This document shows positions 13,630 through 63,949 of a DNA stretch of 64,000 nt, one piece after another (the first letter of the stretch is position 1; every line of letters begins with the position of its first letter). A program made the translations under genes and the position numbers. This DNA is from an uncultured Gammaproteobacteria bacterium (lineage in GTDB: Bacteria > Patescibacteriota > Microgenomatia > UBA10105 > UBA927): NCBI GenBank assembly GCA_964573695.1, contig CAZNKB010000004.1, positions 78,214-142,213 of the forward strand, read 5' to 3'. Under the pieces are notes generated by a model. That model ran no database searches. It was not told the origin of the DNA and worked only from the letters and a program-made list of their open reading frames with translations.

Positions 13630-13704
13630 CTGGTGCCAGCGGCAGGGATCGAACCTGCGACAAATGCCTTATGAAGACACTGCTCTACCACTGAGCTACG
13701 CTGG
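13630..13704 (-). tRNA. tRNA with CAT anticodon (elongator tRNA-Met or lysidine-modified tRNA-Ile2)
   Basis: Reverse complement GCCAGCGTAGCTCAGTGGTAGAGCAGTGTCTTCATAAGGCATTTGTCGCAGGTTCGATCCCTGCCGCTGGCACCA folds as cloverleaf: 7-bp acceptor, TTCGATC T-loop, anticodon loop TTCATAA, encoded CCA. Confidence 0.8.
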
Positions 13705-13948
13705 CTATACGAACTATTTAGTTTATTAACACTGCTCCCGCCTCTTCGGCGGGTCGCCGATGAGGCGACTACCACTGATACACCGGCCTGTATATGCACA
13801 TTTTATCAAATTGGCCTGATAAGGCAACCCGTACAATATCCTGTTTACATGATACAATAGAGCTATTCAACCACTCTGATCGTATGCTTTGCTCTTGTGC
13901 TTAACAGGTACGTGATAGATTGGTGTAAGTGGGAGGTGAGTATAATTC

Positions 13949-16769: not shown

Positions 16770-16842
16770 TGGTTGCGGGGCTGGGAATCGCACCCAGCCT
16801 AGGAGATTATGAGCCTCCTGTGCAACTTTACACTACCCCGCG
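16770..16842 (-). tRNA. Initiator-type tRNA-fMet (CAT) with C1·A72 mismatch
   Basis: Reverse complement CGCGGGGTAGTGTAAAGTTGCACAGGAGGCTCATAATCTCCTAGGCTGGGTGCGATTCCCAGCCCCGCAACCA; 5' CGCGGGG and 3' CCCCGCAACCA ends identical to E. coli tRNA-fMet; anticodon loop CUCAUAA. Confidence 0.75.
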
Positions 16843-43257: not shown

Positions 43258-43751
43258 AACACGTTTGCGTTTATTGATAGTTCAACTTCAGGATTTTTGG
43301 GGTCATTTGTGGAGAATCGAATTTGCCGGGATACTACGCCCAATACAGGCATAATTTTCGGGCGGTATATTGCCTTGAGTGTCGCGGTTTGACTGGCAGG
43401 TACTTCACCAATCCAATTTTTCATGGCGCTATTCATGTGTGTCGGCATATTGAATTCTCCCGTTTCAGATCCTCCAATCGTGACAGTTGCGTACGTGCAG
43501 TTGCATGATGTGGAAACTCCCCAAATCCGTAATGTTGTATCACTGGTATTTGTTATCGTAAACGTAGCTGTTTTGTCTTCGCTTACCTTCATAGAGCCGA
43601 AGTCTTCCTCTTTTTTGTCGATAGTCATAGAGGCAATTCCCATATTTTCCCGATTGGGAGCATTATCACGGCTTAATGTTACCGCCGCCCCAACGATGAT
43701 AAGAACGCTTACGATAATCGCCCCGAAAATAAATTTAGAATCAGAATTCAT
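43254..43751 (-). CDS. DUF1573-like secreted/membrane-anchored protein
   Basis: 165 aa; N-terminal [24 protein letters not shown] beta-rich domain. Confidence 0.4.
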
Positions 43752-45988
43752 ATTTTTGCCCCTTTAAGCCGGAGAGAATTACCCACAACGGAAATGCTGC
43801 TTGCTGCCATGGCAAACGCGGCAATGGCAGGGTTTAATAACCAGCCGGTAAACGGGTAGAGAATGCCGGAGGAAACCGGAATAAGGATGACGTTGTATGC
43901 GAATGCCCAGAAGAGGTTTTGTTTGATAATAGTAAGAGTCGTTTTTGATAGTTTTATTGCGGAAACGACGCTTCCCAAGTCTTTGTTCAGTAATGTGATT
44001 CCGGCTGATTCTATCGCGACATCAGTTCCGGTTCCCATGGCAATTCCGACATCAGCTCCGGCAAGCGCAGGTGCGTCATTGATGCCATCGCCGGCAAATG
44101 CGACAGCGGCGTGTTTTAGACTCTTGAGTTGCGTAATTTTTTCCGCTTTTTGTTGCGGAAGCACGCCGGCTAGCACGTTGGTAATTCCCGCTGTTTTTGC
44201 GACAGCTCTTGCTGTGCGTTCGTTGTCCCCGGTGATCATCCAGACGGTAATTCCAAGACGGATAAGCGCATTGACGGTATGTTTGGCGCTGGGTTTGAGC
44301 GTATCGGCAACGGCGATAAGCCCTAATAAATTTTTCCCTGCAGACAGCAGCATGACCGTCTTTCCTTCTTTTTCGAGAGAGCTCATTTTTTTCTCGGCTG
44401 AGCCCACGGAAATACCCTGAGACTCCATAAGCGTTCTGTTTCCGAGGTAGTAGGGTGTTTGATTGATACTGCCGGTAATGCCGCGGCCGGCAATAGCGCG
44501 AAATTTTATCACGCTGCTTGCGGTGATTGCATGGTCTTTGGCGTATGCAATAATTGCTTCTCCCAAGGAATGTTCAGAGCCTTTTTCAAGAGACGACGCG
44601 ATGCGGAGAATGTCGTTCTTCTGGTTTTTGCCTAACGGAATAATGTCGGTGACTACTGGTTTCCCGATAGTAAGCGTGCCGGTTTTATCAAAAACAATAG
44701 TGTTGATCTTGTGCGCTGTTTCCAGGCTGGACGCGTCTTTTATGAGTATACCGCGTTCTGCTCCCTTGCCCGTGCCGACCATGATTGCCGTGGGCGTTGC
44801 GAGCCCCAGCGCACAGGGGCAGGCGATAATAAGAACGGCAATCATATTGACGAATCCGGCAACGGGAAGACCAAAGTCGTACCAAACGACAAACGTCGCG
44901 ACAGCAAGCATAAGGACGACGGGAACAAAGTATCCGCTCACCACATCGGCAAGCCGTTGGATAGGAGCCCTTGTGCTTTGCGCTTCTGAAACCAACTTCA
45001 CGATTTGAGAGAGCATAGTGTCGGAGCCCACCTTCATGGCGACAAAAAGAAACGTGCCTGTTTTATTTATAGTAGAGCCGATAACCAAATCACCCGCGTT
45101 TTTATCGACCGGGATAGATTCGCCCGTGACCATGGATTCGTCTATCGAGCTCGTGCCGCTGGTTATTTTCCCGTCGACGGGAATTTTTTCTCCCGGACGG
45201 ACACGAATATTGTCGCCCACCTTTACCTCATTTATGGGAATATCGATTTCTTTGCCGTTTCTTATGACTCGGGCAGTTTTGGCTTGCAAGTGAAGAAGTT
45301 TTTTGATCGCGTCGCTGGTATGGGCTTTGGCTTGGGCCTCAAAGAGTCTTCCTAATAGTATAAGTGTGATAATGACCGCGGCCGTGTCATAGTACATAAC
45401 CATGGGGAAACCGAGAGTGTTCAGTTGTGTACCAAATACCGTTGTCATGAGAGAAAAGCCATATGCCGCAGTCGTGCCGACGGCAATCAACGTGTCCATG
45501 CTCGCGGCTCTGTTTCGGAGCCCCGACCAGGTTGCCTGATAGAAACTTTTGCCTGCCCAAAATTGTACCGGTGTTGATAATGCAAGCAGTACCATGGGGT
45601 TACTCAAGAGTTTATAGAATGGCGCTATGGCTGAAAAAACGCCGGTAAACCATTCGGGGAAGCTTCCCAGCAGTATGAGTACGCTTAGCACTCCTGATAC
45701 GATCACCTTTGTTTTGAGGTCTGCTAGCTCTGCTTTTTTTGCAGCCTCTTTTATGTCTTCGGGTTTTTCCTGGTTAGTTGTCGATATTGCTGCCTTGTAT
45801 CCGGCTGATTCTACTGAGGCCGCTATAGATTCTAACGTGCAGGAGGTGGGATCAAATTCTATGGCGGCTGATTCACTTCCATAATTGACGGACGCATCGG
45901 TAACACCCGGCGTTTTTTTGAGCTGTCGCTCAATAAGCCGGGCACAGCTAGCGCAATGCATGCCAATAACAGGAAATGAGGTTTTCAT
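43748..45988 (-). CDS. copA: Copper-translocating P1B-type ATPase
   Basis: N-terminal [15 protein letters not shown]; CPC ion motif ([11 protein letters not shown]); DKTGTLT phosphorylation site; [10 protein letters not shown]; start taken at internal ATG 45988 (ORF track 46027). Confidence 0.9.
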
Positions 45989-46347
45989 ATGACAATAATT
46001 TTTCCGTGAAACATGCTCATACCACAATGCATATCGTAAGTTCCTGCTTTGACAGGGGAGAGTGTTATGGTGACGGGTGTATTGAGAGGAAGAAATCTTT
46101 TTATTTTGAAATCGCTAACGAGAATTTCTTCTAGGCAACTATTGGGATCCGTCCGGGTGAGCGTGATTGTGGATTTTTTGTTGGCGGGCACAACAATGGT
46201 GTTTGGTTTGTAGCCACCGTCTACGAGGATATCCCATTTTTCCTTGGCGGAGCCATATCCGGATTCAGCAGATCTGTTTCCGAAAAAAAACCAGTAAATT
46301 CCGCCGATACCCAATATCCCAAGAAGCGTGACAAGAAATTTATCCAT
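45985..46347 (-). CDS. Cupredoxin-like domain protein, membrane anchored
   Basis: 120 aa; N-terminal TM; C-terminal [16 protein letters not shown] motif (Cys/His/Met copper ligands) typical of Cupredoxin_1-like domains; 4-nt overlap with copA. Confidence 0.5.
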
Positions 46348-46624
46348 GTTGTTTCTCCATGACCTTCATGACTTCTGCTATGACTTCCTCGGTGTTGCCT
46401 TTGCGGATTTCTTCGGCGACGCACGTTTCCATGTGGTTTCGTAAGATTTCCTGGTCAGTGCTGCGTAGTGCCGCCTGTACTGCTAATGATTGGTGAATGA
46501 CATCAACACAGTAGTTGCCTTGTTCCATCATTCGGATAACTTTGTCTAAATGACCGCGTGCTATCTTCATGCGGTGAAGGATTTTATTCTGAATTGATTG
46601 ATGTCGCGGTATTCCTTTTGGCAT
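46340..46624 (-). CDS. csoR: CsoR/RcnR family metal-sensing transcriptional repressor
   Basis: 94 aa; KILHRMKIARGHLDKVIRMMEQGNYCVDVIHQSLAVQAAL (conserved Cys/His copper ligands). Confidence 0.8.
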   Translation of the reverse strand: MPKGIPRHQSIQNKILHRMKIARGHLDKVIRMMEQGNYCVDVIHQSLAVQAALRSTDQEILRNHMETCVAEEIRKGNTEEVIAEVMKVMEKQHG

Positions 46625-46665
46625 ATAAATCCTCCTTGACCCCGATAAAGTCGGGGTTGACTTAT

Positions 46666-46682
46666 ATCCCCCCTATGGGGAT
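46666..46682. promoter_or_regulatory. CsoR operator-like GC-rich palindrome within divergent promoter
   Basis: ATCCCCCCTATGGGGAT inverted repeat between TTGACT (-35-like, 46657-46662) and TAGAAT (-10-like, 46682-46687). Confidence 0.5.
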
Positions 46683-46709
46683 AGAATCATCCTATCATGT
46701 TTTTGCGGA

Positions 46710-47750
46710 TTGTCAATTCTTTTGGTACACTTACTTAACTTTATGCCAAATCTTTGGATCATATTTACAACGGGACTGATCGCCGGGGGACTGACCTGTA
46801 TGGCCGTGCAGGGAGGAATACTGACCACTGCACTTACACGAGAGGAAGAGGCGGATCCGAAGGGTTCTCGGGTGGTAGGCGTGACGGCGTTTCTTATGGC
46901 CAAACTCCTTTCTCATGCGATCCTTGGGGCTCTTCTGGGGTGGTTGGGGTCATTCATCGCGCTCTCACCCAGAACTCAGGCAATCGGAATCGGGCTTGTC
47001 TCCCTGTTTATGATCGGAACCGCACTGTCATTTCTCGATATCCACCCTATTTTCCGATACTTCGTCATACAGCCTCCACGAATGCTCACGCGTTATATTC
47101 GCGGAACCGCGAAGGGGGGTAGTTGGTACGCACCGGTACTCATCGGATTGCTTTCTATCTTTATTCCCTGCGGGACGACGCAGGCGATGATGGTGTTGGC
47201 CGCAAGCACGGGGAGTCCTTTATGGGGAATGGCGGTACTGGGAGTTTTCGTTTTGGGAACGGCCCCGCTTTTCTTTCTTTTGGGAATTTCTATTGATGTG
47301 ATCAAAGCAACGCTGAAAGAAAAATTCGGTGTGGTAGCATCTGTACTCGTTATGTCGCTTGCGCTTATTAACCTAAATGCCGCGCTTACGCTCTACGGAT
47401 CACGAGTAAATTTGTGGTCGTTGCCGCGTGCTTTGTTTTGTGCGGTGACATTTTGTACCCCGCTAGAGGGTAATCTGGATGCGACGACGACGCCAACGAT
47501 CACCTTTTGGCTCAATGGATATAAAATTGATAACCCTGTTATTCCTAAAGGGGAATCGATTACTCTAACGCTCACAAACACGGCAGGGCAAGGGTGCGTT
47601 CAGGCGTTTACCATTCCGGCACTCGATATTCAGGAGGTAGTGCCTGTCGGGATAACCAAGACGCTCACCTTTACCGCCCCAGACAGGAGCGGAGAGTTAG
47701 CGTTTAGTTGTAGTATGGGTATGTACGGAGGAAAATTTATTGTGCGTTAA
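46710..47750 (+). CDS. Polytopic membrane protein (TauE/CcdA-like, Cys-containing TMs) fused to C-terminal cupredoxin-like domain
   Basis: 346 aa; TM cysteines (GLTCMAV, IFIPCGTTQ); C-terminal FSCSMGMYGGKFIV paralogous to 45985-46347 product. Confidence 0.45.
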   Translation: MSILLVHLLNFMPNLWIIFTTGLIAGGLTCMAVQGGILTTALTREEEADPKGSRVVGVTAFLMAKLLSHAILGALLGWLGSFIALSPRTQAIGIGLVSLFMIGTALSFLDIHPIFRYFVIQPPRMLTRYIRGTAKGGSWYAPVLIGLLSIFIPCGTTQAMMVLAASTGSPLWGMAVLGVFVLGTAPLFFLLGISIDVIKATLKEKFGVVASVLVMSLALINLNAALTLYGSRVNLWSLPRALFCAVTFCTPLEGNLDATTTPTITFWLNGYKIDNPVIPKGESITLTLTNTAGQGCVQAFTIPALDIQEVVPVGITKTLTFTAPDRSGELAFSCSMGMYGGKFIVR

Positions 47751-51530: not shown

Positions 51531-51622
51531 TTGACAGGCGAGTGAGCGGCTGTTTACTATAAGGTATATCAGCACGCGCTGCCCCAAGCTTGTTGACAAC
51601 CAGACGGAAAGTCCGCTACAGT
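51531..51622 (+). promoter_or_regulatory. Two tandem sigma70-like promoters upstream of the uncharacterised gene array
   Basis: TTGACA(51531-36)-18-TACTAT and TTGACA(51593-98)-18-TACAGT. Confidence 0.35.
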
Positions 51623-51965
51623 GAAGCTTAGTATGAATACAAAACAAGCCAAGTTTGAAGACCGTCTTACCGACATTGTTGTTCAGATAGAGAAGTCCGG
51701 GTGGACTGACGAGGATAAAAACGCGCTGTATGCCAAAATCAGCGAGTATCTCCACAGCGTCGTATTGCCGGTGCTACTTAAGTTTACCCCAGTCGATGAA
51801 TTAAAGGACCTTGCAAATAACCCCGCAAAAGATACCGTTGACGCGTTCGTTGAGGTTATGAAAAAACCATTAAGCGATCCAAAAATGGCTCAAGAGCTTG
51901 ATGCGACGGTCCACAGTGTGCTTGATGATGTCGAAACTGCCTTATCCAAAGGAGGGATAACATGA
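51621..51965 (+). CDS. Small acidic helical protein, paralogue A of a 3-member family (unknown function)
   Basis: 114 aa; shares …(D/E)KxxLYAxISExLxxxxxPVLLKxxPxxEL…NPxK…T… with 52513 and 53495 ORFs; likely true start ATG 51633. Confidence 0.55.
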   Translation: MKLSMNTKQAKFEDRLTDIVVQIEKSGWTDEDKNALYAKISEYLHSVVLPVLLKFTPVDELKDLANNPAKDTVDAFVEVMKKPLSDPKMAQELDATVHSVLDDVETALSKGGIT

Positions 51966-52507
51966 GTGAACAATCCATGGGTGCAGAACTAGGGACACCG
52001 AGAGATCGTGCCATTGCCTATCTGGAACTCCGGCAGCACGGAACATACAAAGGCGGAGCGGAGAAAAACGTCAAGACAGGATTGATTCCCGACAAAGTAC
52101 GTCGTACCGAGCCGCTTGTAGATGCGGTGACTGCCTATGAGCAGGTGATTGACCGCATGGGACAGAAGGGGTTTGTCGGGTCACAGCAAGCATTGGAAAA
52201 TCTTCGTCCGCAGGCCTATGACGCGATGCGCGGTGTGCAATGGGGAGCGAGAGCCGCGGACTTTTTGTTGACCGCAGCTATCTGGTTGGGACCAACGAGA
52301 CGGGTTATTCGAGGATTACCGCTTAAAGCAGCCGCAACGTGGGCCATGATGAGATTCCGTCCTCTTGAATGGGCCGCAGCTACGGCGACAAAGATAGGCG
52401 GATCCGTTGCCACAACGGAAACAGTGGCGCCCGTTGTCAACAAAATTCTGCAAGGCGGAGAACGCGTTCCGAAAACGCCCGCCGTACCTAAACCCATGGC
52501 GGCCTAA
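51962..52507 (+). CDS. hypothetical protein with Ala/Trp-rich hydrophobic segment
   Basis: 181 aa; 4-nt overlap with upstream ORF; ADFLLTAAIWLGPTRRVIRGLPLKAAATWAMM. Confidence 0.45.
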   Translation: MSEQSMGAELGTPRDRAIAYLELRQHGTYKGGAEKNVKTGLIPDKVRRTEPLVDAVTAYEQVIDRMGQKGFVGSQQALENLRPQAYDAMRGVQWGARAADFLLTAAIWLGPTRRVIRGLPLKAAATWAMMRFRPLEWAAATATKIGGSVATTETVAPVVNKILQGGERVPKTPAVPKPMAA

Positions 52508-52512
52508 CTATC

Positions 52513-52821
52513 ATGGAAGAGAAACTTAAAGCGATCCTTGCCCGCATAGAAGCCTCAAACCTCGAAGAGCAGGATAAGGTAAAGCTCTATGCCGTCATCT
52601 CCGAGTCTCTCAAGGCGGCGATTTGGCCTACACTTCTTGCCAAAATGCCGAAAAACGAGCTGGAAATGCTTGTGAAAAACCCCGGGAAAGCAACTGCTGA
52701 ATCATACCTTCATCTGATCGAAGAAGCGACCAAAGACGAAAAGGTGCTGGATGACGTGAATGAAGTGCTTATGAATTTGGTAAATGAAATAGATGCGGCC
52801 CTTACGGAGGAAAAGATATGA
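52513..52821 (+). CDS. Small acidic helical protein, paralogue B
   Basis: 102 aa; MEEKLKAILARIEASNLEEQDKVKLYAVISESL…WPTLLAKMPKNELEMLVKNPGKATAESY. Confidence 0.55.
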   Translation: MEEKLKAILARIEASNLEEQDKVKLYAVISESLKAAIWPTLLAKMPKNELEMLVKNPGKATAESYLHLIEEATKDEKVLDDVNEVLMNLVNEIDAALTEEKI

Positions 52822-53432
52822 CCGAGCAAACAGGAGAATTGGCAGCCCCAGTCGAACGGGAGAGCGGTGTGGTAAAACGGATTGCCGAGAAGGCCGGCAA
52901 GTTTTTGTCGGAAAACTACACATTGAAGGGTGCCAAGGCGCGGGAACTGAGAGCGCTTGATGCGGTGGTAGGGAGCTTTACCCCGGAACAGCAAATGGAG
53001 ATGCGGGCACATTTTGAGGCTAAGGCGGAGAAGAATGCAAAATGGAAAGTGATCCGTAATTGGGTTGCGACTGGTGCTGGTATTGCCCTTGGCGGAGCAG
53101 TAGTAATAGCCGGACCCGACAAAGCTGCTGCGGCAGTCGTGTTGGCTGCAGGAAAAGTAGCTGAATGGTGGACGGTGACAGCCGCTCCGGCGCTTGCAAA
53201 AGCGGCAGCGCCAATAATTGCAGTGGGAGAAGCGGTCAAGACAGGGATACACAAGGCCTGGACTACGGTGTATAACTATGTTGACTATATGTTTGATATC
53301 AAACCGTTTGCGGTTGATATCCCATGGACCCAAATCAAAGACGGGGCGCCGAAGATCCCGCCATTCCCCGATTTACCACCGTTTAATCCGCCAAAGATAG
53401 AGATTCCCTGGCCGAAATTCGGGATTAAATAG
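52818..53432 (+). CDS. hypothetical protein with Gly/Ala-rich hydrophobic hairpin
   Basis: 204 aa; WVATGAGIALGGAVVIAGPDKAAAAVVLAAGKVAEWWTVTAAPALAKAAAPIIAVG; Pro-rich C-terminus. Confidence 0.45.
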   Translation: MTEQTGELAAPVERESGVVKRIAEKAGKFLSENYTLKGAKARELRALDAVVGSFTPEQQMEMRAHFEAKAEKNAKWKVIRNWVATGAGIALGGAVVIAGPDKAAAAVVLAAGKVAEWWTVTAAPALAKAAAPIIAVGEAVKTGIHKAWTTVYNYVDYMFDIKPFAVDIPWTQIKDGAPKIPPFPDLPPFNPPKIEIPWPKFGIK

Positions 53433-53494
53433 GTGAGGGGATATTGACTTGACGGTGTCCTGATGCCATAGTATTAATTAAGAAAAGGAGTCTT

Positions 53495-53818
53495 ATGGAA
53501 GATAAACTGAAAGCAATTGTGACGAGAATCGAACAAAGTAAATTATCCGAAGCAGAAAAGGCAGAGCTTTATACAACTATCTCTGAGGGACTGCAGGTGA
53601 CCGTGTGGCCGGTGTTACTTAAATACATGCCCAAAGAGCAACTTGATTATCTTGCTGCCGATCCTAAGGGGAGAGTGACTGTCGAAAGTTATGCGCAACT
53701 CATTACCGATACGATCAAAGACGGTGTGGCACTCAAGGAAATTGATGACCTGATGAATCAGGTGCTTGATGAGGTCGATAAAGCACTTTCTGAAGAGGGG
53801 ATCGATACAGTAAAATAA
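53495..53818 (+). CDS. Small acidic helical protein, paralogue C
   Basis: 107 aa; MEDKLKAIVTRIEQSKLSEAEKAELYTTISEGLQVTVWPVLLKYMPKEQL…. Confidence 0.55.
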   Translation: MEDKLKAIVTRIEQSKLSEAEKAELYTTISEGLQVTVWPVLLKYMPKEQLDYLAADPKGRVTVESYAQLITDTIKDGVALKEIDDLMNQVLDEVDKALSEEGIDTVK

Positions 53819-53849
53819 ATTAAGTTTTCTTGCCCAAAGAAGAAAGGAT

Positions 53850-54377
53850 ATGACTATGGCAGAAATAGGAATGTCAATGGAACCACCGAAAAAAGGATTT
53901 GTCGAAGGGCTTCGTCGTGCATTCACGGTTGGGGGAGCGAAAGAGAAGTGGTATCAGGATCACAAAGATCTGGTGCTTAAATACACAGATGTGCATAATG
54001 GCCTGAACGACGAACAGCGTGCACAGGTGATGCAGCAGATAGAAAACGACGCGACTAAGTCGGCAAAGATCGCCGTTGGGAAGCATGTGGGTGCAGCCGT
54101 TCTCACAACTGCAGTTCTGGGATTTGGTGGAGGACTTGTGGGGAGTGAGCGGTTCCGAAATTTTGTAGCAAAAGGCAAATTGTTTAATTGGGAGTTTGGA
54201 AAAGGACTTGCAACACTAGGGGAGAAAGGGGCTGGTCATTTGGGTGATGCAAAAAAATGGCTGGACAAGGTAATTGATGGGCCAAAGCAGTGGGTGTATA
54301 AAAAAATACTTCCTGATTCTGCGCTTACCGGCGCGTTTGATGCAGGGGCTACTGTGGCTAGCGCAGTAAAGAAATAA
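53850..54377 (+). CDS. hypothetical protein with Gly-rich hydrophobic segment
   Basis: 175 aa; VGAAVLTTAVLGFGGGLVG. Confidence 0.45.
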   Translation: MTMAEIGMSMEPPKKGFVEGLRRAFTVGGAKEKWYQDHKDLVLKYTDVHNGLNDEQRAQVMQQIENDATKSAKIAVGKHVGAAVLTTAVLGFGGGLVGSERFRNFVAKGKLFNWEFGKGLATLGEKGAGHLGDAKKWLDKVIDGPKQWVYKKILPDSALTGAFDAGATVASAVKK

Positions 54378-54473: not shown

Positions 54474-55235
54474 ATGTCTATGTCAGAAATACCCAAGGGT
54501 AATCCTCAATTTGTGGGCCAAGCAGATGCGAGTAAATTGCAGGCCGAAGCTCCCATAAAAGCCGAATTTACTATTTCCCCGGAACAGCAAAAGGTAGCCG
54601 ACGTTATGAAAGAGAGTGGTGATAAGCTTGCTGACTCCGTCATTGAGGCGCGGGCACGGGCAGCCGGTAAACTTCAGTCGTTGCGTGGTAAAGAACTCGT
54701 TGATGCGGGATTGAAGCAAATGGGAAGAGGAGCCTGGGAAACATTCAAGTCGGAACTCAAATGGGGGATACCAATGTACATATTAGGCACGGTTGGTGGA
54801 GCGACAGCAGGATATGCAGGTGTAAGAGGATTACGCACAGAAGAAGGGCGCCAGTCTCTAGCAAATAGTTTATCCAGTCTCTCGGATGAGCCAGTACCGC
54901 TTATGTCTGCGGAGGAAGCACGTTCTGCACAGCAATTCGCGACAGGTCTTGGTGCAACCATAGGGGGAACTATTGGTAAGGATGTAGGTGTGTTGTTGGG
55001 ATACGAAACCGCTGGGCTCAAATATAACAAGAAAATTGCGGTCAAGGAAAACTTACCGTCCACGAAATTTGTTGACTGGGTAGTTGGTAATGCTGCAAAT
55101 GTCGGGATACGGACGCTTCTTAAAGGGCGTTTCGGCTTTGTAGGTCAGCTTGTGGTAAATGAGGTTACAAATCCGATAACAATCGGGGGACTCCGCAATG
55201 TGGCGACCGGCATGTGGCAGATGAGAAAGGGATAA
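54474..55235 (+). CDS. hypothetical protein with Gly-rich hydrophobic segments
   Basis: 253 aa; IPMYILGTVGGATAGYAGV and GLGATIGGTIGKDVGVLLGYETAG. Confidence 0.45.
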   Translation: MSMSEIPKGNPQFVGQADASKLQAEAPIKAEFTISPEQQKVADVMKESGDKLADSVIEARARAAGKLQSLRGKELVDAGLKQMGRGAWETFKSELKWGIPMYILGTVGGATAGYAGVRGLRTEEGRQSLANSLSSLSDEPVPLMSAEEARSAQQFATGLGATIGGTIGKDVGVLLGYETAGLKYNKKIAVKENLPSTKFVDWVVGNAANVGIRTLLKGRFGFVGQLVVNEVTNPITIGGLRNVATGMWQMRKG

Positions 55236-55236
55236 T

Positions 55237-55521
55237 ATGCAGGCACTGAAACACAAAATACAGCATACAACTCTATTTTCTGATGACGATAAGATCGCTA
55301 TCCTTGCTGCAGTCGATACGTACACTGCGGAAGATGTAAAGGCGCTGGAGGGCATCATCGATGAGTTTGATGAGAAGCACCAGGAGGCTATTTCCGAGTA
55401 CAAAAAATCCGTGTACGGAGTACTCGATACGATCGTTGCAAAAGCGAACCCGTCAGACAAAAAACGCTTCCAAAATGCTGCAGCTGATGTCCGGAGCGGT
55501 TTAGACGCACTTCTACAATAA
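55237..55521 (+). CDS. small acidic helical protein (possibly distant relative of the 3-member family)
   Basis: 94 aa; 4-nt overlap (ATGA-type) with upstream ORF. Confidence 0.4.
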   Translation: MQALKHKIQHTTLFSDDDKIAILAAVDTYTAEDVKALEGIIDEFDEKHQEAISEYKKSVYGVLDTIVAKANPSDKKRFQNAAADVRSGLDALLQ

Positions 55522-55560: not shown

Positions 55561-57726
55561 ATGACCGAGTACCCTCCGAAGCCCAAGCGTACTATAGAGG
55601 CGCCCACAAAGGAAATTCCCCGCGTAGACCCGAGCCCGCTTCAAGAATCCGCAAAGTTAGTAGGGGCTATAGATGCGAAAGATAAGCAGGGAATCGAGCA
55701 GCACTCAAGCGCATTGGTGGATGAAGTAAGAAAGGATTTTGCCCGTCAGAACGTACCACTTACTCCAAGCGAAACATCATCTCTGGGAAAAAAAGTGAAA
55801 GACTCTTTGAATAACGCCGGAAAGCGGACATCTGAAATGGTGTTTTCTAAAGAGATGCAGAAGGACTTGGCAGAGTATAGGAGTATCGTAACAGATATAG
55901 AGAAAACGTATAAATTTTCCTCAATAGCCCCTGAATTCTATAAGGCGGCAGATAAAATACGTACAAACACAGTGTTGGAAACATTAAGTATTTTTGGTAT
56001 TCAGCACGCATCTAACCCGGGACATGTCGAGCGTGCAGCGATAGAGGTGGCCAGATTTAGTGAAGCAAAGGGCGTAGGGGCAAAGCTCAAACACGCCATG
56101 TCTATCGGAAGGGAAGCACTGCCGTATGTCTACATACTTGGGCTTATACCGCCGCTCATTAACAGTAAGAACATCAGTAAACAATTTGAAGAAAGCACCA
56201 TGAAATTGCGATCAGCTATTAACACCCGGGTAGCACAGTCCGTTTTTATGAGGGATTTTGAGTTTATCCATGACAAGCCAGCCTCAGAAATCATGAATAT
56301 CGTCGATAAAGGCAAACAGGGTACCGTTGATCTTATGAGACTCACGTACAAGCAAATGTTGCCAAAGATTGCAGCTCTTGGTGCAATTACGACTACGGAA
56401 TTTCTTATTGCTCCTCCCGCGGGTATCTTGGGACTTATTCGGATACCGTTCTTGGCTAAACACGGGGAACAAACTGCCAGAAAAATTCTTTCTGAGCGCG
56501 CAGAGAATTTAAAGAGGAAGGATTTGATAGATGCTCGTGTGATGTCGTCGCTTCAGAGTCTCGAGGTGGTTCGGACGACAGATAGCATGGTGAATGCCAT
56601 GGAAGAGCTGCAAAGTAATATGTCCAAAAGCGACGAAGTGGATATTGCGGCGGATTCCTCAAGAAGTGAACGCGACATAAAGGAATCCTACTATGGTTTG
56701 GGGTATACCTATGGCATACCCATTGTAGCCGCCGGGTGGGAAGCGTTGATGAATTTAAATGCACTGAAAGGAAAAGATACGTCGTTTGATGCCGGCCAAG
56801 CGTCGCTCAATGTTATGCTCGCAGGAACCAGTACGTTAGCTTTGGAGGGTATTAACGGTGCGATGATGGAAGAGCTTGTACATGAATACACGGATAAAGT
56901 GCAGCCCGCACTTCAGGATATCCGTCGCATGAATGAGCTGTTGGGGCCGTATGATCAGGTCGATACGCCGGAGGGCCCACGGGAACAGGCGCGGATGCCG
57001 GCCGAAGCGTTGGGTAACTTTGATATTTCCATAAAAAATTTGAATTTCAAAAATATTTTACATAACGTGTCCATGGATATACCCCAAGGGTCGTTTGTGA
57101 CTATCAAGGGGCAGTCGGGAATAGGGAAGACGACCTTTTTACGTCATATGCTTGGGTTGTTTGGTGCAGAAGAGGGCAAGGTGTCATACGGCGGAACGGA
57201 TCTCGGGAGTATCAAAAAGTACGGAGAACACTCGATTTATTCTCAGCTTGCGTATGCCAATCAGAACCCTCAATATTTCGAAAACATGAGCCTTAGGGAA
57301 AACCTATTGCTTTGGACCAAAAAGCAGGTTGACACGGAAAAATTAACAACGGTACTACACGATCTCCACCTGGATCATATCGCAGACCGTATGGACAGCA
57401 ATGTGAAGCATTTTTCCGGTGGGGAACTCCGCAGAATCGGGATTGCCCGGGCGCTCCTTAAAGATCCGAAGGTGCTCTTCCTTGACGAGCCAACCGCAAA
57501 TTTAGACGAAGCTTCGGCAAAACAGGTGCTCGATATCATTAAACAGATGCGAAAGACGAGACCGGATATGACTGTGGTTGCCGTGACCCATGATCCGAAT
57601 TTCGAAGCGATCGCGGAAAAGATCGTTGATTTTGCCGAGGTGAATAAGCCTAACGATACGAAAGCCGAGTCACTCGGGAACCGGCAGGTGTTTTATGCGT
57701 CGAGTGCTTCTCCCTCGAAGAATTAG
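55561..57726 (+). CDS. ABC-type ATPase fused to ~480-aa N-terminal exporter-TMD-like but weakly hydrophobic domain; paralogue 1 of 3
   Basis: 721 aa; Walker A GQSGIGKTT, signature FSGGELRRIGIARALL, Walker B VLFLDEPTANLDE, H-loop AVTHD; N-domain motifs FMRDFEFIHDKPASEIMNIVDKGK and QPALQDIRRMNELLGPYD. Confidence 0.7.
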   Translation: MTEYPPKPKRTIEAPTKEIPRVDPSPLQESAKLVGAIDAKDKQGIEQHSSALVDEVRKDFARQNVPLTPSETSSLGKKVKDSLNNAGKRTSEMVFSKEMQKDLAEYRSIVTDIEKTYKFSSIAPEFYKAADKIRTNTVLETLSIFGIQHASNPGHVERAAIEVARFSEAKGVGAKLKHAMSIGREALPYVYILGLIPPLINSKNISKQFEESTMKLRSAINTRVAQSVFMRDFEFIHDKPASEIMNIVDKGKQGTVDLMRLTYKQMLPKIAALGAITTTEFLIAPPAGILGLIRIPFLAKHGEQTARKILSERAENLKRKDLIDARVMSSLQSLEVVRTTDSMVNAMEELQSNMSKSDEVDIAADSSRSERDIKESYYGLGYTYGIPIVAAGWEALMNLNALKGKDTSFDAGQASLNVMLAGTSTLALEGINGAMMEELVHEYTDKVQPALQDIRRMNELLGPYDQVDTPEGPREQARMPAEALGNFDISIKNLNFKNILHNVSMDIPQGSFVTIKGQSGIGKTTFLRHMLGLFGAEEGKVSYGGTDLGSIKKYGEHSIYSQLAYANQNPQYFENMSLRENLLLWTKKQVDTEKLTTVLHDLHLDHIADRMDSNVKHFSGGELRRIGIARALLKDPKVLFLDEPTANLDEASAKQVLDIIKQMRKTRPDMTVVAVTHDPNFEAIAEKIVDFAEVNKPNDTKAESLGNRQVFYASSASPSKN

Positions 57727-57750
57727 TACGTTTGGGTTACAATACCGTGC

Positions 57751-59682
57751 ATGGTTAACGTAGAGCGTCAAAAAGCGCCAATTTCTTTTGCTCCAGAGCT
57801 TTCTACAAGAGGATCGGATGAAAAACTTCCTGCAATATCCCTCAAGGAATATCAGGATACGTTTTTGTCCCTCTACACGCTCTATGGATTAGATAAACAT
57901 GCCGCAAAACTCGGATTGCTAGAAGGGACCATGATGACGCGTTCCGTTATGGGACAGCTCATGGGGCCATTTATTAACAAGCAGTTCCGCACTATATTCG
58001 TCGGGTCGTCACCTACAGGTGAGTTGAGCGAGGGTTTAGCGCGGCCAAATGATAAACAAGCGTTCCTTGCCGCTGCAAAAAAACTAGCATTCATTGTAGG
58101 TGGCGCTATGGCCGGGAATTTGTCGGTAAAGTTATTGGACGGGGTGGCCAGGAAAGCATACGAGGAAGAGTCGTTGTTTTTCCGAAAAGCGATAAATGAC
58201 CGTATCGCGCAGTCCATATTCATGCGTGACCTTGAGTTCGTGCAGAATAAGACTCCCGCAGAGATACTCAACATCATAGATAAAGGGAAGCGGGGGATAA
58301 TGACTGTCATTGATGAGACTATTACGGAAGTCGTACCTCACTTGACGGCAATCGTGGCCGCAAGTGCCGCCGGATTTACGGTGGACAAGAAAGTGGGAGG
58401 GTTGGGGCTCCTCCGTCTGCCGTTTCTGTATGCCACGAATAAGAAGGTGATAGAGCAGATGCTTGTGGACAGAAAGAAAGAGCTGGCGCAAAAGGACGCG
58501 ATAGACGCGCGTGTGATGTCATCGCTTCAGAGCGTAGAGTTGGTGAAGTCCTCCGATACTATGGAGCATGCAATCGGCGAATTGGGCAACACGATGCATG
58601 AACAGGATGCCATGATTATCAAATCCAAGCAAAAACGCGTTGCCAGAAGTCAGCAGGAGGCGTACCTTGATACATTGTTTGAAGATATATTGCCTATGGC
58701 GCTCGGGTACGCGGAATATAATGACTTGGTACAATCCGACCATAACCCTTTCGCTTCCGCGACCGTAGCCCTTCAGCACTACAGAACAATAGCGGGTGAA
58801 CAGCGCAGCATAGGCTGGCATGCATCCGCGTTAATGTCATCTCTCTCAGAGAGGATCCAGCCGGCGATTCAAGATATCAAAAGAATGGATGAGTTGCTTG
58901 GTCCGTATGATATGCTGGATAAGCCGGACGGGTTGTTGGAACAAGCAAGAAATCCTGTTTCCCAACTCCGTAACTTTGATATTCAGGTGCGGAATTTACA
59001 ATACAAAAATATACTCCACAACGTATCCCTTCATATACCTGAGGGGTCGTTCGTGACCATTCGAGGGCCTTCGGGTATCGGAAAAACAACACTTCTTCGT
59101 CATATGTTGGGATTGTTTGGGGCGGCGCATGGGGTCGTAACTTACGGAGATCAAGATTTGGGGAGTATAAAAAAATACGGTGAGCATTCTATCTATTCCA
59201 AGTTAGCATATGCGAATCAGGCGCCGTTGTATTTTGAAAATATGTCACTTCGGGATAACCTTCAGTTGTGGACGACGAATCACGTGTCCGACGAAACTTT
59301 ATTCCAGGTGTTGCACGATTTGAAACTCGATCATATCGCAGGTCGACTTGATAGCAAGGTAAAGCATTTTTCCGGTGGGGAACTCCGGAGAATTGGAATT
59401 GCCCGGGCGCTCCTCAAGAATCCGCAGGTGCTTTTTTTGGATGAGCCGACCGCAAATTTAGATGAAGGATCATTACAGCAGGTGTTGCAGATCATAAAAG
59501 ACATGCGTAAAAACAGGCCGGATATGACGGTTATTGCGATAACCCATGATCCGCATTTTGAAGCGATCGCGGAAAAGATTGTGGATTTTGCCGAGGTGAA
59601 TAAGCCAAACGACATGAGCGCGGAGACACTCGGGAATCGGAGCGTATTTTATGGGCCACCGCCCACAGGAAAGAATACATAG
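57751..59682 (+). CDS. ABC-type ATPase fusion protein, paralogue 2
   Basis: 643 aa; GPSGIGKTT, FSGGELRRIGIARALL, VLFLDEPTANLDE; N-domain FMRDLEFVQNKTPAEILNIIDKGK, DARVMSSLQSVELVKSSD, QPAIQDIKRMDELLGPYD. Confidence 0.7.
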   Translation: MVNVERQKAPISFAPELSTRGSDEKLPAISLKEYQDTFLSLYTLYGLDKHAAKLGLLEGTMMTRSVMGQLMGPFINKQFRTIFVGSSPTGELSEGLARPNDKQAFLAAAKKLAFIVGGAMAGNLSVKLLDGVARKAYEEESLFFRKAINDRIAQSIFMRDLEFVQNKTPAEILNIIDKGKRGIMTVIDETITEVVPHLTAIVAASAAGFTVDKKVGGLGLLRLPFLYATNKKVIEQMLVDRKKELAQKDAIDARVMSSLQSVELVKSSDTMEHAIGELGNTMHEQDAMIIKSKQKRVARSQQEAYLDTLFEDILPMALGYAEYNDLVQSDHNPFASATVALQHYRTIAGEQRSIGWHASALMSSLSERIQPAIQDIKRMDELLGPYDMLDKPDGLLEQARNPVSQLRNFDIQVRNLQYKNILHNVSLHIPEGSFVTIRGPSGIGKTTLLRHMLGLFGAAHGVVTYGDQDLGSIKKYGEHSIYSKLAYANQAPLYFENMSLRDNLQLWTTNHVSDETLFQVLHDLKLDHIAGRLDSKVKHFSGGELRRIGIARALLKNPQVLFLDEPTANLDEGSLQQVLQIIKDMRKNRPDMTVIAITHDPHFEAIAEKIVDFAEVNKPNDMSAETLGNRSVFYGPPPTGKNT

Positions 59683-59692
59683 CGCGTATTGA

Positions 59693-60502
59693 GTGGTATA
59701 CTATAGGTATATGAGCGAGAAACCACCAATGGGCGATATGCGCCCCAAACCAAAAGATATTCTCTTGCCGCCTGATAAGGCCAAAGAGATAAGTGACATT
59801 ATCCCCAAACCGGAGAATCAATTCCACTATAAAATTACCGGGGAATGGCAGCAGAATCGAGAGGTCTATCGGGTCATGGAGGGTAATAAAGTGATCAGCG
59901 ACTACTCATTCCCGGAAAAAAGTAACATGAGTAAGGTGCAGTTTGCCACCCGCAAGACGTATTCCAAAGAAGTGAATTTATTGGGAGCTTGGACGGATCA
60001 GCCCGTGCAATTTGACCGCAAAACCGGAACGTGGAAAAAGCTCAATATCCTTGAGCGCGTGAAGCAGACGTTTTCCAAAGAAGTGAATATCCCGGCGCAA
60101 GTGGTCATGGAAGTGGCTGGTGGTAAAGAGGTGCCGATCCTTCACACGCTTGAGCAGAAGCGCCCGGTAGGAGAGACGGTTGTCGAGGCTAAAGTAAATA
60201 CACTTTCCGAGGCGCAGGTTGACTTGGGTCTTAAGTATAAGCACGTGGATCACAAGATTTCAGAGCTTGAAGAGACTAATCGGGTGCTCAAAACTGAAGC
60301 AGCGACAAGTGCTGCCTTGATCGCGTCACTTCGCCAGCAAGTCGTTATCGCTAACCGAAAAGTTTCCGAATTATCGGCACAACTTCGTGTGGCGCAAATG
60401 AAGGCGCAGGATGCGGCTAATCAGGCAAACCCACATCATGAAGGGCCAATCTACTCCAAGCCGGACCCTGCGGATGTTGTCGAGGGTGAAGTCATAGGAT
60501 AA
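59693..60502 (+). CDS. hypothetical protein with internal short repeat and C-terminal coiled coil
   Basis: 269 aa; repeated (Y/F)SKEVN(L/I) motif; heptad-rich C-terminus ELEETNRVLKTEAATSAALIASLRQQVVIANRKVSELSAQLRVAQMKAQ. Confidence 0.4.
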   Translation: MVYYRYMSEKPPMGDMRPKPKDILLPPDKAKEISDIIPKPENQFHYKITGEWQQNREVYRVMEGNKVISDYSFPEKSNMSKVQFATRKTYSKEVNLLGAWTDQPVQFDRKTGTWKKLNILERVKQTFSKEVNIPAQVVMEVAGGKEVPILHTLEQKRPVGETVVEAKVNTLSEAQVDLGLKYKHVDHKISELEETNRVLKTEAATSAALIASLRQQVVIANRKVSELSAQLRVAQMKAQDAANQANPHHEGPIYSKPDPADVVEGEVIG

Positions 60503-60521
60503 TACTGTACAATAAGGGGAT

Positions 60522-62759
60522 ATGACGGCTGAACGACCGCTCAAACCACCCGTTCCGAAGGAGCCACACGTTACAACAGACGTGAGCTCTATAGTTACCC
60601 CAAAGGCAGTTGAGAGTACCACACCAGTTATAGAGCGTGTCGCAGAGGGTAAGCCGCCCGAATCCAAAGATTTGACCGCTATGGTAGAACAGGTTGCCAA
60701 GGACTTGCGTGAGCAGGGCATACCGGTTTCCTCGGATGATATACGCGCTGTCCAAAAGTTAGTAGAGCGGGGGTCATACCCGGCATCTTCTTCGGAGTCC
60801 CCAAAACCAGGACAAAAAAAGCCTGTTGAAACAGGACCGCTACCGGAAATCGATCTCAATGAGTATAAAACGGTAGTAGACGATTTGGTCCGGAACTACG
60901 GCGTAGATAAGCAGGCGTGGGGCAAGATCAGCCATATCATCGGCATTACCACACTGGTCGGGGATTTCCTGGGAGGCATGCAGCGGAAAATGTTTGCTAC
61001 GAAAGAGGGCCGGAAATATGTTTATCGCCGGTTCGGTGCAATCGGGCATGAATTGGGGCTCAAGAAATTCACGCCGAAAGAATTTTTCCAGAGTTTGCCG
61101 GTTATGAAAAAAGAAAAAGCGGCAAAAATGGGCAAGTGGTTACTGGAAAGTTCATGGCCGTTCCTCGCCAGTCCCGTGTATTGGTTGTTAGAGCGACAGG
61201 CAGGGAAAATTGCGGGGAAGATGTTTATGGCTGAGCGCACCAATCTGCAAGAACAGGTGAACAATCGGATAGCGGATTCGCTATTTATGCGGAATTTCGA
61301 ATTCCTCAATAACACGCCGTCGGGAGAAATGTTGGAGATTATTAATCGCGGTAAAGATGCCACTCTGGATCTCATGAGTGCGGTGCATGAGGAGCTTATC
61401 CCGCTCAAATACGCGACGGCGGGATCAATCGGGAAGCAGTGGCTGATTAATCCGGTAGATGCCGGAGCAGCGTTGTTCAAAAAAATGATGCTGGAAACCC
61501 GCGTGAAGCCAAATGCGCAACGTATACAAAAGCAGAATGATGAGGCCCTCAAACACTGGGATACCGTCAATACCAAGCTCCTGACGACTTTACAGGGTTT
61601 AGAAACGGTACGGACAACAGGTAATGCAGAAGCCGGATCGGATGTCCTCTATCAGGCGTTGGCGGATAGGGATTTCGTGGAATCGGGCGGCATGCGGGAG
61701 AAGCGTCAGCAGGATCGGACGATGAATAAGCTATTTGATCTTTTGGACATAAGTGTGCCGTTGACGACCGAGGGGTTGAAGTTGTGGCAAGAGATCAGGG
61801 GGGGAGTGAGCGAAACAGGGAAGCCGTATATGGCTGACGATATGTTTAATAGTTTGGCTGACGCGTATTTTCGGGTAACCGGTTCCAAGGGGGAGCAGCA
61901 GGATTTGCGTCAGATGACACTTCAGAAAACACATTTATATGTGAATCGTATCATCCCTGATATTCAGGATATCAAGCGCATGGAAGATCTACTGGGTCCG
62001 TACGATCTTCTTGATCATCCGCTTGGACTTCGGGAGACAGCCAGAAAGCCGGTGTCGGATATCAGCAGGTTTGACATCAAGGTGGAAAATTTGCGGTTTA
62101 AACATATCCTTCATGGGGTAAATTTGGATATCCCCCAGGGATCGTTCGTCACGATTAAGGGTCCGTCAGGAATAGGGAAGAGTACGCTATTTCGGCATCT
62201 TGTGGGGCTCTACCCGGGAGATTCCGGGTCGGTAAAATATGGTGATGTCGATATCGACGGCATCAAAAAATACGGTGAGCAGTCCATATTCACCAAAATC
62301 GCGTATGCCAACCAAAATCCCCAGTACTTTGAGGATATGACGCTCCGGGAAAACCTCCTCTTGTGGACGTCAAAAGATATTCCCAATGAGCGCATCGAGT
62401 CGGTGTTAAAGGATTTGAAATTGGATGCTATCGTTGATCGGCTGGATACGAAAACCAAACATTTTTCCGGAGGCGAAATGCGCCGCATCGGCATCGCCCG
62501 GGCGTTACTCAAGGATCCCAAGGTGCTGTATCTTGATGAGCCTACGGCAAACCTGGATGCTGCCTCCACGCTGCAGGTGATGAAGATTATTCAGGAACTC
62601 CGTAAATCACGACCGGATATGACCGTGGTTGCCATTACCCATGACCCGGTATTCGAGCGGATTGCTGAACACGTGGTAGATTTTGCCGATATCAACAAAA
62701 AATCCGAATCTGTCGCTCTCGGTGACGGCCAGGTATTAGAAGCGATCGCGAAGCCCTAA
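60522..62759 (+). CDS. ABC-type ATPase fusion protein, paralogue 3
   Basis: 745 aa; GPSGIGKST, FSGGEMRRIGIARALL, VLYLDEPTANLDA; N-domain FMRNFEFLNNTPSGEMLEIINRGK, QGLETVRTTGNA, IPDIQDIKRMEDLLGPYD. Confidence 0.7.
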   Translation: MTAERPLKPPVPKEPHVTTDVSSIVTPKAVESTTPVIERVAEGKPPESKDLTAMVEQVAKDLREQGIPVSSDDIRAVQKLVERGSYPASSSESPKPGQKKPVETGPLPEIDLNEYKTVVDDLVRNYGVDKQAWGKISHIIGITTLVGDFLGGMQRKMFATKEGRKYVYRRFGAIGHELGLKKFTPKEFFQSLPVMKKEKAAKMGKWLLESSWPFLASPVYWLLERQAGKIAGKMFMAERTNLQEQVNNRIADSLFMRNFEFLNNTPSGEMLEIINRGKDATLDLMSAVHEELIPLKYATAGSIGKQWLINPVDAGAALFKKMMLETRVKPNAQRIQKQNDEALKHWDTVNTKLLTTLQGLETVRTTGNAEAGSDVLYQALADRDFVESGGMREKRQQDRTMNKLFDLLDISVPLTTEGLKLWQEIRGGVSETGKPYMADDMFNSLADAYFRVTGSKGEQQDLRQMTLQKTHLYVNRIIPDIQDIKRMEDLLGPYDLLDHPLGLRETARKPVSDISRFDIKVENLRFKHILHGVNLDIPQGSFVTIKGPSGIGKSTLFRHLVGLYPGDSGSVKYGDVDIDGIKKYGEQSIFTKIAYANQNPQYFEDMTLRENLLLWTSKDIPNERIESVLKDLKLDAIVDRLDTKTKHFSGGEMRRIGIARALLKDPKVLYLDEPTANLDAASTLQVMKIIQELRKSRPDMTVVAITHDPVFERIAEHVVDFADINKKSESVALGDGQVLEAIAKP

Positions 62760-62794: not shown

Positions 62795-62947
62795 GATATG
62801 CCAGGTAGTAGAATTTCGATACGCTTTCGTTTCATTGCGCGTCGACTAGGCTCTCTGGAGATATGAATTAGTTTTTAATAAACAAAGGAGATTGAAATTC
62901 CGTCAGCGTAAAACGCAATGGTCGAAATTTCACTACCTGGTATGGAC
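62795..62947. repeat. Copy B of the ~150 bp TIR-bounded repeated element
   Basis: Ends CCAGGTAGTAGAATTTCGAT (62801-62820) and GTCGAAATTTCACTACCTGG (62921-62940); ~45 nt 5' and ~35 nt 3' segments closely match copy A at 4641-4790. Confidence 0.6.
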
Positions 62948-63949
62948 GAGACACCGGAAATTCCACAAAAAGAACAGATCGTAAGTTCTCCTGAACTTGA
63001 CGACCGAATTAGACAAGCTCAGACAGAGATATTGGCTCAAGGGAAAAACCCGGAAGCCGTTGCCGGACGTAATATCGCAGAGATGAGTTTCTTGAAGGCG
63101 CTAGGGGAAACCATTAAACCGCATGCGAAAAGGTTACGGGAAATTAACTTCAAACAATTTAAAGCGCAGGGTGCCGCAGTCCTTAGTCTTATTCCTATCA
63201 TCGGAGAAGGGAAGGCGTTTTTGAGCACGGTGGGAGTAGTGAAGGGATACGAGAAAGCGACAAGCGTCTACAAAGCAGAAAAGGGGTGGCGGAAAGTCAA
63301 AGCGATAGGGGCCGGATTTGGCCGCGCCATGGCGGAAAATGCGCCGACTGCCGCCAAAGCCGGGTCGTTTTTTGAAAAAGTACGCGCCGGCAATGTCGTT
63401 GGGAAAGTTGAAGCTGAAGCGGCACTCAGGGCTGAACATATAGCTGCCAATATCGCGCACGGAACCTACGAGAGCAGTAGGGAAGCGAGTAAGGCGCTCA
63501 AGGCCGGACTAAAGTATAACAAAGAAGTCACGAAGCAGGCGCTCAAAGCAGGCCTGGATGAAGCTGCGGATGCAGCAGGAAAAACAGGTGTAGCAAGGTG
63601 GGCGTTTAAGGAAATCGAAAAGCGGAAAATACCGACAATCAAAATTTTGGCAAACCCGGAAAAGCGTGCGGCGATCGGTGCGTTTTTGGACCTTACGCCG
63701 GACGTTCCGGGCTGGCTATCGCTTACGACTGCAGTGGGCGAAATGGTGGGCATACACGGTATAGACGTGATACCCGCTGCGTTACAAATGGGCAAAAACA
63801 CGATTGATACCGCCGTGACGTACGGTAAGCTGACGAGTGATGTGCTAAATCTTGCGATAGACCGGGTGACCGGCAGGGGTAAAGGAGTAGCAAAGGCAGC
63901 ACAATTGTTTTCGTCGTATTCGGCGAGCCCAGGTTTGCAAGGAGCATGA
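62918..63949 (+). CDS. hypothetical Lys/Ala-rich protein (true start more likely ATG 62942, downstream of the repeat)
   Basis: 343 aa; first 8 codons lie inside repeat copy B; helical, KA-rich, Gly-rich hydrophobic segment near C-terminus. Confidence 0.4.
   Translation: MVEISLPGMDETPEIPQKEQIVSSPELDDRIRQAQTEILAQGKNPEAVAGRNIAEMSFLKALGETIKPHAKRLREINFKQFKAQGAAVLSLIPIIGEGKAFLSTVGVVKGYEKATSVYKAEKGWRKVKAIGAGFGRAMAENAPTAAKAGSFFEKVRAGNVVGKVEAEAALRAEHIAANIAHGTYESSREASKALKAGLKYNKEVTKQALKAGLDEAADAAGKTGVARWAFKEIEKRKIPTIKILANPEKRAAIGAFLDLTPDVPGWLSLTTAVGEMVGIHGIDVIPAALQMGKNTIDTAVTYGKLTSDVLNLAIDRVTGRGKGVAKAAQLFSSYSASPGLQGA

Follow-up and report, generated by a model that had tools for sequence, protein, structure and literature searches.

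ATP-binding cassette (ABC) exporters of the type IV fold, also called type I exporters, are textbook integral membrane proteins. Their half-transporters, for which CydDC, Atm1/ABCB6/ABCB7, TM287/288, TmrAB, McjD, MsbA and Sav1866 were compared here, contain a six-helix domain followed by one nucleotide-binding domain (NBD). ABC NBDs also do mechanical work off the membrane, for which ABCE1, ABCF/EttA, SMC/Rad50 and UvrA are precedents. Engineered water-soluble 'QTY' variants of ABC transporters have been modelled in silico (PMC10988169). Here, we analysed three neighbouring genes encoding ABC ATPases, named A, B and C, in a Gottesmanbacteria genome, together with the gene island around them, on a 64,000-nucleotide stretch of contig CAZNKB010000004.1 (assembly GCA_964573695.1), the whole of which is hereafter called the window. 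Homology, predicted fold, loss of hydrophobicity, purifying selection and gene context were computed. The N-terminal domains (N-domains) of the three proteins are predicted to keep the fold of a type IV half-transporter while their hydrophobicity is low throughout the family, and we consider that A, B and C are probably an exporter-derived, ATP-driven machine that does not span the membrane. The genes, as open reading frames (ORFs), and their domains are as follows.

Paralogue A: 55561-57726, plus strand, intact ORF of 721 aa; N-terminal extension and six-helix exporter-like domain at residues ~1-483, ABC NBD at ~484-721
Paralogue B: 57751-59682, plus strand, intact ORF of 643 aa; model helices at residues 47-83, 102-158, 169-211, 213-264, 270-328 and 333-383, NBD at 405-615
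Paralogue C: 60522-62759, plus strand, intact ORF of 745 aa, more polar than A and B
NBDs of A, B and C: about 57010-57726, 58960-59682 and 62040-62759, plus strand
269-aa ORF: 59693-60502, plus strand, inserted between B and C, with weak, sub-threshold coiled-coil-type matches

Overall identity to A is 51% for B and 38% for C, indicating that the three proteins are paralogous. Each C-terminus matches the Pfam domain ABC_tran (PF00005; E 1e-28 to 3e-31, 98-109 bits for a cut-off of 25), with one such stretch per protein. All the canonical NBD motifs are found, namely Walker A, the Q-loop, the FSGGE(L/M)RR signature, Walker B with the catalytic glutamate (LDEPTANLD) and the H-loop (THD); they are conserved in 42 of 42 aligned relatives and place the proteins in the ABC ATPase superfamily. 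In type IV exporters, an X-loop (TxVGExG) precedes the signature motif and contacts the intracellular loops. Alignment of the NBDs with those of CydC, CydD and MsbA showed that this element is absent from A, B and C, an 8-residue gap standing before the signature, and also revealed that 6 residues are missing after the A-loop and that the C-terminus is shorter. An earlier note, made from the letters of this DNA, had announced three tandem paralogous ABC ATPases with complete C-terminal NBDs, and both the three intact plus-strand ORFs and their NBDs are indeed present. The word tandem holds in that the genes are neighbours but not strictly, since the 269-aa ORF separates B from C; this ORF is present only in the window and in its closest relative (L005) and is therefore a recent lineage-specific addition. 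The N-domain length of 450-520 aa given in that note does not suit B, whose N-domain has ~400 aa, and its Walker A consensus GxSGIGKTT fails for C, which reads GPSGIGKST. Finally, the segment QPA.QDI.RM..LLGPYD, taken there for an x-loop-like element, is in the model of B the linker between the sixth transmembrane (TM)-equivalent helix (TM6) and the NBD, the true X-loop being the one that is missing.

The AlphaFold2 (AF2) models of B and C were built independently, from different family alignments. Both place six long helices ahead of the NBD (predicted local distance difference test, pLDDT, 72.8 for B and 73.3 for C), in the same topology and with turns at equivalent places; the C model has an N-terminal three-helix extension in addition. 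Compared with the PDB by Foldseek, the two models align over ~600-650 columns with full-length type IV half-transporters (E 1e-18 to 1e-16), the matches including CydC, Atm1, TM287/288, McjD, MsbA, Sav1866 and TAP. Target-normalised TM-scores range from 0.47 to 0.72 among the matches listed, and the top match for B is the CydC structure 7zda_C. As in type IV exporters, the predicted N-domain has six helices with long intracellular extensions and two coupling loops. In the model of B, the block FMRDFEF...DKGK falls at the end of TM2 and in the first intracellular loop (ICL1), and the block ARVMSSLQS.E.V at the end of TM4 and in ICL2. A, B and C are thus like type IV half-transporters in their order of domains, their two intracellular loops, their conserved ICL1, ICL2 and linker blocks and their full set of NBD motifs. 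The models support a descent of the three proteins from type IV (type I exporter) half-transporters.

Hydrophobicity was compared with that of E. coli CydC, CydD and MsbA, using 19-residue Kyte-Doolittle windows (KD19, with a threshold of at least 1.6), the Hessa scale and the Eisenberg scale. TM-equivalent segments were defined as six 22-residue segments, taken on either side of the model's three distal turns. A has one KD19 window at or above the threshold and B and C have none, versus five in each control; the maximum for C is 1.08. The 19-residue Hessa-scale sum never falls below +5.7 kcal/mol in the three proteins, versus -2.8 to +4.6 in the controls. The TM-equivalent segments contain 16 charged residues in A, 20 in B and 30 in C (range 14-30, mean 19, over 23 members), versus 1-5 in the controls, and their Eisenberg mean hydrophobicity is 0.24 versus 0.68. 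The same holds family-wide, since the mean of the six best windows is 0.66-1.34 in 107 full-length members and 1.88-2.19 in the controls, without overlap, and all 68 representatives of an exhaustive search (see below) have 0-2 hydrophobic windows. By these hydropathy measures, the six hydrophobic membrane spans of a type IV exporter are found neither in A, B and C nor in the 107 members. A genome-wide low hydrophobicity was rejected as an explanation, because other membrane proteins encoded on this DNA are not unusual: six strong windows were counted in the P-type ATPase (43748-46027), as many in the DsbD_2 protein (46710-47750) and two in FtsH. What hydrophobicity is left is concentrated in TM2 of the B-types and in the TM3-TM4 hairpin of the A/B-types, with none in C. 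In A, the hairpin FLIAPPAGILGLIRIPFLA is the sole weakly hydrophobic stretch (KD19 1.79), and it contains an R..P motif that is nearly invariant.

Alternatively, A, B and C could have stayed in the membrane as integral half-transporters whose helices are unusually polar. The glycine/alanine (Gly/Ala)-rich proteins of the island could then help to insert these helices or shield them, or A, B and C could form a wide proteinaceous conduit through which proteins are exported. The fold predicted for them cannot be told apart from that of exporters, the A/B-types keep the semi-hydrophobic stretches just mentioned, the Gly/Ala segments of the neighbouring proteins are weakly hydrophobic (KD19 up to 1.72), and orthologues are annotated by NCBI as 'ATP-binding protein/permease'. 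However, such a membrane belt would have to accommodate 14-30 charged residues, no segment has a favourable insertion energy, C lacks any hydrophobic window, low hydrophobicity extends to all 107 members, and no convincing TM helix or signal peptide was found in any island protein. We therefore regard an integral membrane location as unlikely, although it is an alternative to be taken seriously.

Several points nevertheless weigh against a machine that has left the membrane. The confidence of the AF2 models is only moderate (pLDDT ~73), and monomer models cannot show the contacts of the surface that formerly faced the membrane. The solubility of A, B and C is read from hydropathy scales. In the A/B-types, one or two semi-hydrophobic stretches are left, as is a conserved segment resembling an elbow helix (Y34, Y45), so that some membrane contact of these types is possible. 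As the NBD has no X-loop, its coupling to the helical domain may differ from that of exporters. Finally, the link between the ABC proteins and their neighbours is one of gene context, and no neighbour matches a known family.

At the sequence level, the exporter relationship of the N-domain is faint. Residues 145-267 of B match positions 73-195 of the Pfam profile ABC_membrane (PF00664) with E 6.5e-4 and 19.9 bits, below the gathering score of 28, and A and C give no match to this profile. Sub-threshold matches were obtained for 10 of 23 members (best E 9.6e-5), and the only confident match on record is that of a distant member, P0061, which bridges the family to ordinary exporters. P0061 (782 aa, L016 7633-12349) has an intermediate hydrophobicity and an N-terminal extension of ~300 aa, and may represent an intermediate stage of hydrophobicity loss; its gene context differs, its neighbours being a 2OG-Fe(II) oxygenase and a 766-aa protein without annotation. 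A profile of the N-domain searched against PDB sequences aligned in register with ABCB6 at ICL1-TM3-TM4-ICL2, with E only ~1, and hhalign of this profile against the single E. coli MsbA and CydC sequences found nothing significant; because a single-sequence template is too weak, the latter result is not evidence against homology. These weak scores would suit an N-domain of unrelated origin, a soluble helical domain such as the coiled-coil arm of SMC/Rad50-type ABC ATPases, its exporter-like model being an AF2 artefact. This is very unlikely, as the ABCB6 and PF00664 matches are weak but in register, TIGR03796 from NCBIfam aligns over residues 151-599 of B, P0061 ties the family confidently to PF00664, the two independent models agree on the six-helix topology and the places of the turns, and a helical domain N-terminal to a single NBD is the order of half-transporters and not that of SMC-type proteins. 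Thus, several claims of the earlier note stand: the comparison with Sav1866 and MsbA folds that it proposed gives full-length Foldseek matches for B and C, the N-domain blocks that it saw shared by the paralogues are real, and the exporter descent it proposed agrees with the fold match, the sub-threshold PF00664 matches and P0061. Its statement that the N-domains lack convincing TM helices is borne out on three scales, family-wide and against controls. The note did not recognise these domains as a described family, and none was found here either: the N-domain is not covered by any model of Pfam, NCBIfam or PADLOC, and the literature searched holds no description of such proteins.

The ratio of nonsynonymous to synonymous substitution rates (dN/dS) of the N-domains against orthologues is 0.02-0.09; since dS is saturated, this is an upper-range indication, yet it is far below 1. 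Conservation decreases from the NBD (0.83) to the intracellular parts of the bundle (0.63) and to the TM-equivalent segments (0.46), and invariant residues occur throughout ICL1, ICL2 and the linker. This gradient indicates that the ATP-coupling core was preserved while the former membrane part diverged. The N-domains are under strong purifying selection, and are functional rather than decaying. That they are decaying exporter relics, with a degenerating membrane domain and no function of their own, is improbable in the extreme, and selection and synteny lead us to reject it: the TM-equivalent segments are the least conserved part and the NBD has lost the X-loop and part of its C-terminus, but the ORFs are intact and in conserved order in 11 of 11 genome loci, the N-domain dN/dS is low, the ICL1, ICL2 and linker blocks hold invariant residues, all catalytic motifs are canonical and the family counts 68 representatives at 50% identity.

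We next compared the proteins with each known system. Unlike type IV half-transporters, A, B and C have no hydrophobic spans, stay below the PF00664 threshold and have lost the X-loop, and because these three exporter features fail, they are not ordinary type IV members. They also differ in their shortened A-loop region and NBD C-terminus, in the ~100-130-aa N-terminal extensions that A and C carry, and in an operon from which genes for a membrane partner, a periplasmic adaptor or a recognisable substrate are absent. The best NCBIfam matches are the E. coli heme exporter subunits CydD and CydC (TIGR02857 and TIGR02868), ranked first with E 1e-36 to 1e-39, and the signature SGGELRR..IARALL of E. 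coli CydC is shared by A, B and C. However, these matches reach 124-136 bits for cut-offs of 329-435, only the linker and the NBD align, and NBD identity is 25-29%; no cytochrome bd (cyd) genes occur in the neighbourhood, and the proteins do not qualify as CydC or CydD. With soluble ABC ATPases such as ABCE1, ABCF/EttA, SMC/Rad50 and UvrA, they might share, by analogy, the mode of action. In those proteins the NBDs are in tandem or carry coiled-coil inserts, and a helical domain of the exporter type is absent, whereas a single NBD follows a complete exporter-like bundle in the models of B and C, and A, B and C are for this reason not soluble ABC proteins of the ABCE, ABCF or SMC type; the EttA and RLI matches they give are generic NBD matches. 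An anti-phage defence ABC ATPase was likewise discarded, because PADLOC returned generic NBD matches only (mad3, mad8, AriA, LmuB) and the neighbours were unmatched. The nearest concept found is that of the QTY variants, in which the transporter fold is kept and the membrane-facing residues are polar (PMC10988169); unlike in those designs, the change here is natural, family-wide and under purifying selection. No natural soluble descendant of the exporter fold was found in the family libraries or the literature searched. On balance, we favour the view that what is new here is a natural variant of the type IV exporter fold devoid of membrane-spanning character.

Word-indexed searches returned 23 clusters with the N-domain of B and 34 with that of C, and the exhaustive profile search, run on 1.84 billion representative proteins, gave the 68 ABC family representatives (50% identity). 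The family is rare and essentially confined to Gottesmanbacteria and some other bacteria of the candidate phyla radiation (CPR), one distant member coming from Peregrinibacteria. Scanning of 185,579 species genomes identified 11 loci, in all of which the ABC ORFs are intact and gene order is conserved. Eight are labelled Candidatus Gottesmanbacteria or Patescibacteria, and three (L005, L008 and L012) 'uncultured Gammaproteobacteria'. L005 and L008 share the small-protein and Gly/Ala-rich genes of the island and L012 carries the ABC genes; the labels of L005 and L008 are probably wrong, and all three bins are probably mislabelled or contaminated. Genomes contain three ABC genes, or two, one of A/B-type and one of C-type, and the A- and B-types look like products of a later duplication. 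The phrase 'in triplicate' of the earlier note thus describes the window but is lineage-specific, several genomes having two paralogues only. C-type orthologues were found in nine of the 11 related loci. A second ABC gene that has diverged further takes their place in L011, L012 and L014, and L013 has a single ABC gene. The occurrence within a genome of two conserved types of paralogue, which recalls the heterodimers CydDC and TM287/288, suggests that an A/B-type and a C-type protein form a heterodimer.

From these computed properties we infer the solubility, the heterodimer and the clients in the following scheme. As in CydDC or TM287/288, two unlike subunits would pair, one of A- or B-type and one of C-type. 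Because the catalytic NBD and the ICL1, ICL2 and linker blocks have been kept, this pairing and the coupling of ATP to bundle motion are most likely retained: the ATP-driven closure of the NBDs would be passed through ICL1, ICL2 and the linker so as to open or close the helical bundle. The bundle would now lie in the cytoplasm or, at most, rest on the membrane surface, where the weakly hydrophobic TM3-TM4 hairpin of the A/B-types could serve as an anchor.

The ABC genes belong to a conserved, tightly packed plus-strand island that starts after glutamate dehydrogenase. Besides the ABC genes and the 269-aa ORF, it contains the following features, in which isoelectric points are given as pI.

Three cassettes: 51621-54377, plus strand, upstream of the ABC genes, each encoding a small acidic helical protein and, after it, a basic protein rich in Gly+Ala
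Small acidic proteins of the cassettes: 51621-51965, 52513-52821 and 53495-53818, plus strand, 114, 102 and 107 aa, pI 4.4-4.8, mutually paralogous
Basic cassette partners: plus strand, 181, 204 and 175 aa, pI 9.3-10.1, 24-25% Gly+Ala
253-aa basic Gly/Ala-rich protein and 94-aa acidic helical protein (second small class): 54474-55521, plus strand, directly upstream of A
343-aa basic Gly/Ala-rich protein: 62918-63949, plus strand, downstream of C

The arrangement of cassettes upstream of the ABC genes is kept in synteny, with repeats also seen in L005 (16227-20187) and L001 (14286-20095), and in related loci the island goes on downstream with more pairs of small and mid-size proteins. Across the window, L005 and L001, the small proteins fall into two classes, of 102-114 aa and 77-97 aa (pI 4.3-5.6). 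Their partners have 175-389 aa and 13-25% Gly+Ala and are mostly basic (pI 7.8-10.1, with one at 6.5), several of the mid-size ones being paralogous. The 107-aa protein (53495-53818) has 88 homologue clusters and shows 60-94% identity in nearly all of them, with two at 47-50%. It is more conserved than the adjoining ATPases, which points to a core role, structural or stoichiometric. Searches of Pfam, NCBIfam and PHROGs gave nothing usable for ten neighbouring island proteins, and PADLOC gave no match. A profile of the small proteins matched the hemoglobin-interacting domain of Streptococcus Shr (6dkq, 7cud) in the PDB with E 0.017, which was treated as chance. The promoter and terminator scan gave no signal above shuffled expectation.

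The clients of the proposed machine might be the co-encoded basic, amphipathic Gly/Ala-rich proteins, an assignment that we make tentatively, the small acidic helical partners then acting as adaptors or chaperones. The arrangement recalls the gene pairs of secretion chaperones and effectors, such as those of type III class I chaperones. As in these, a small acidic helical protein stands directly upstream of a basic partner, in several copies around an ATPase, an analogy which we take as a lead only; unlike in these, the island contains no secretion channel, and neither sequence nor fold gives a sign of homology. Put together, these elements make up a broader reading, plausible but rather short of an even chance, in which an exporter membrane domain would have become a soluble or surface-attached machine, as a first natural case, and A/B-C heterodimers would handle the co-encoded proteins within an apparatus of ~20 genes specific to Gottesmanbacteria. 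Powered by ATP, the heterodimers would clamp, unfold, load or release the basic proteins and their acidic partners, and the apparatus would possibly deliver membrane-active proteins in the symbiotic lifestyle of CPR bacteria.

If A, B and C are soluble or peripheral, a six-helix membrane domain can leave the bilayer while its fold and its ATP-coupled mechanics are kept. This would bear on the interconversion of membrane and soluble folds and on the design of soluble transporter analogues, and would provide a naturally soluble, detergent-free model for the coupling between NBD and intracellular domain. It would also point to a strongly conserved apparatus in a little-charted CPR lineage, which the label 'ATP-binding protein/permease' from automatic annotation would hide.

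Other features were observed in the window. A copper-type module (43748-47750) comprises the P-type ATPase, with an HMA domain and on the minus strand, and a DsbD_2-cupredoxin fusion (46710-47750); in L001 the island is likewise preceded by the same DsbD_2/cupredoxin, HMA, thioredoxin and thioredoxin-reductase genes. An 821-aa DUF4012 protein is encoded at 55-2520, and a three-domain ATP-dependent DNA ligase (DNA_ligase_A_N, _M and _C) at 30193-31920. Two tRNA-Met (CAT) genes lie ~3 kb apart on the minus strand, at 13631-13705 and 16770-16842.

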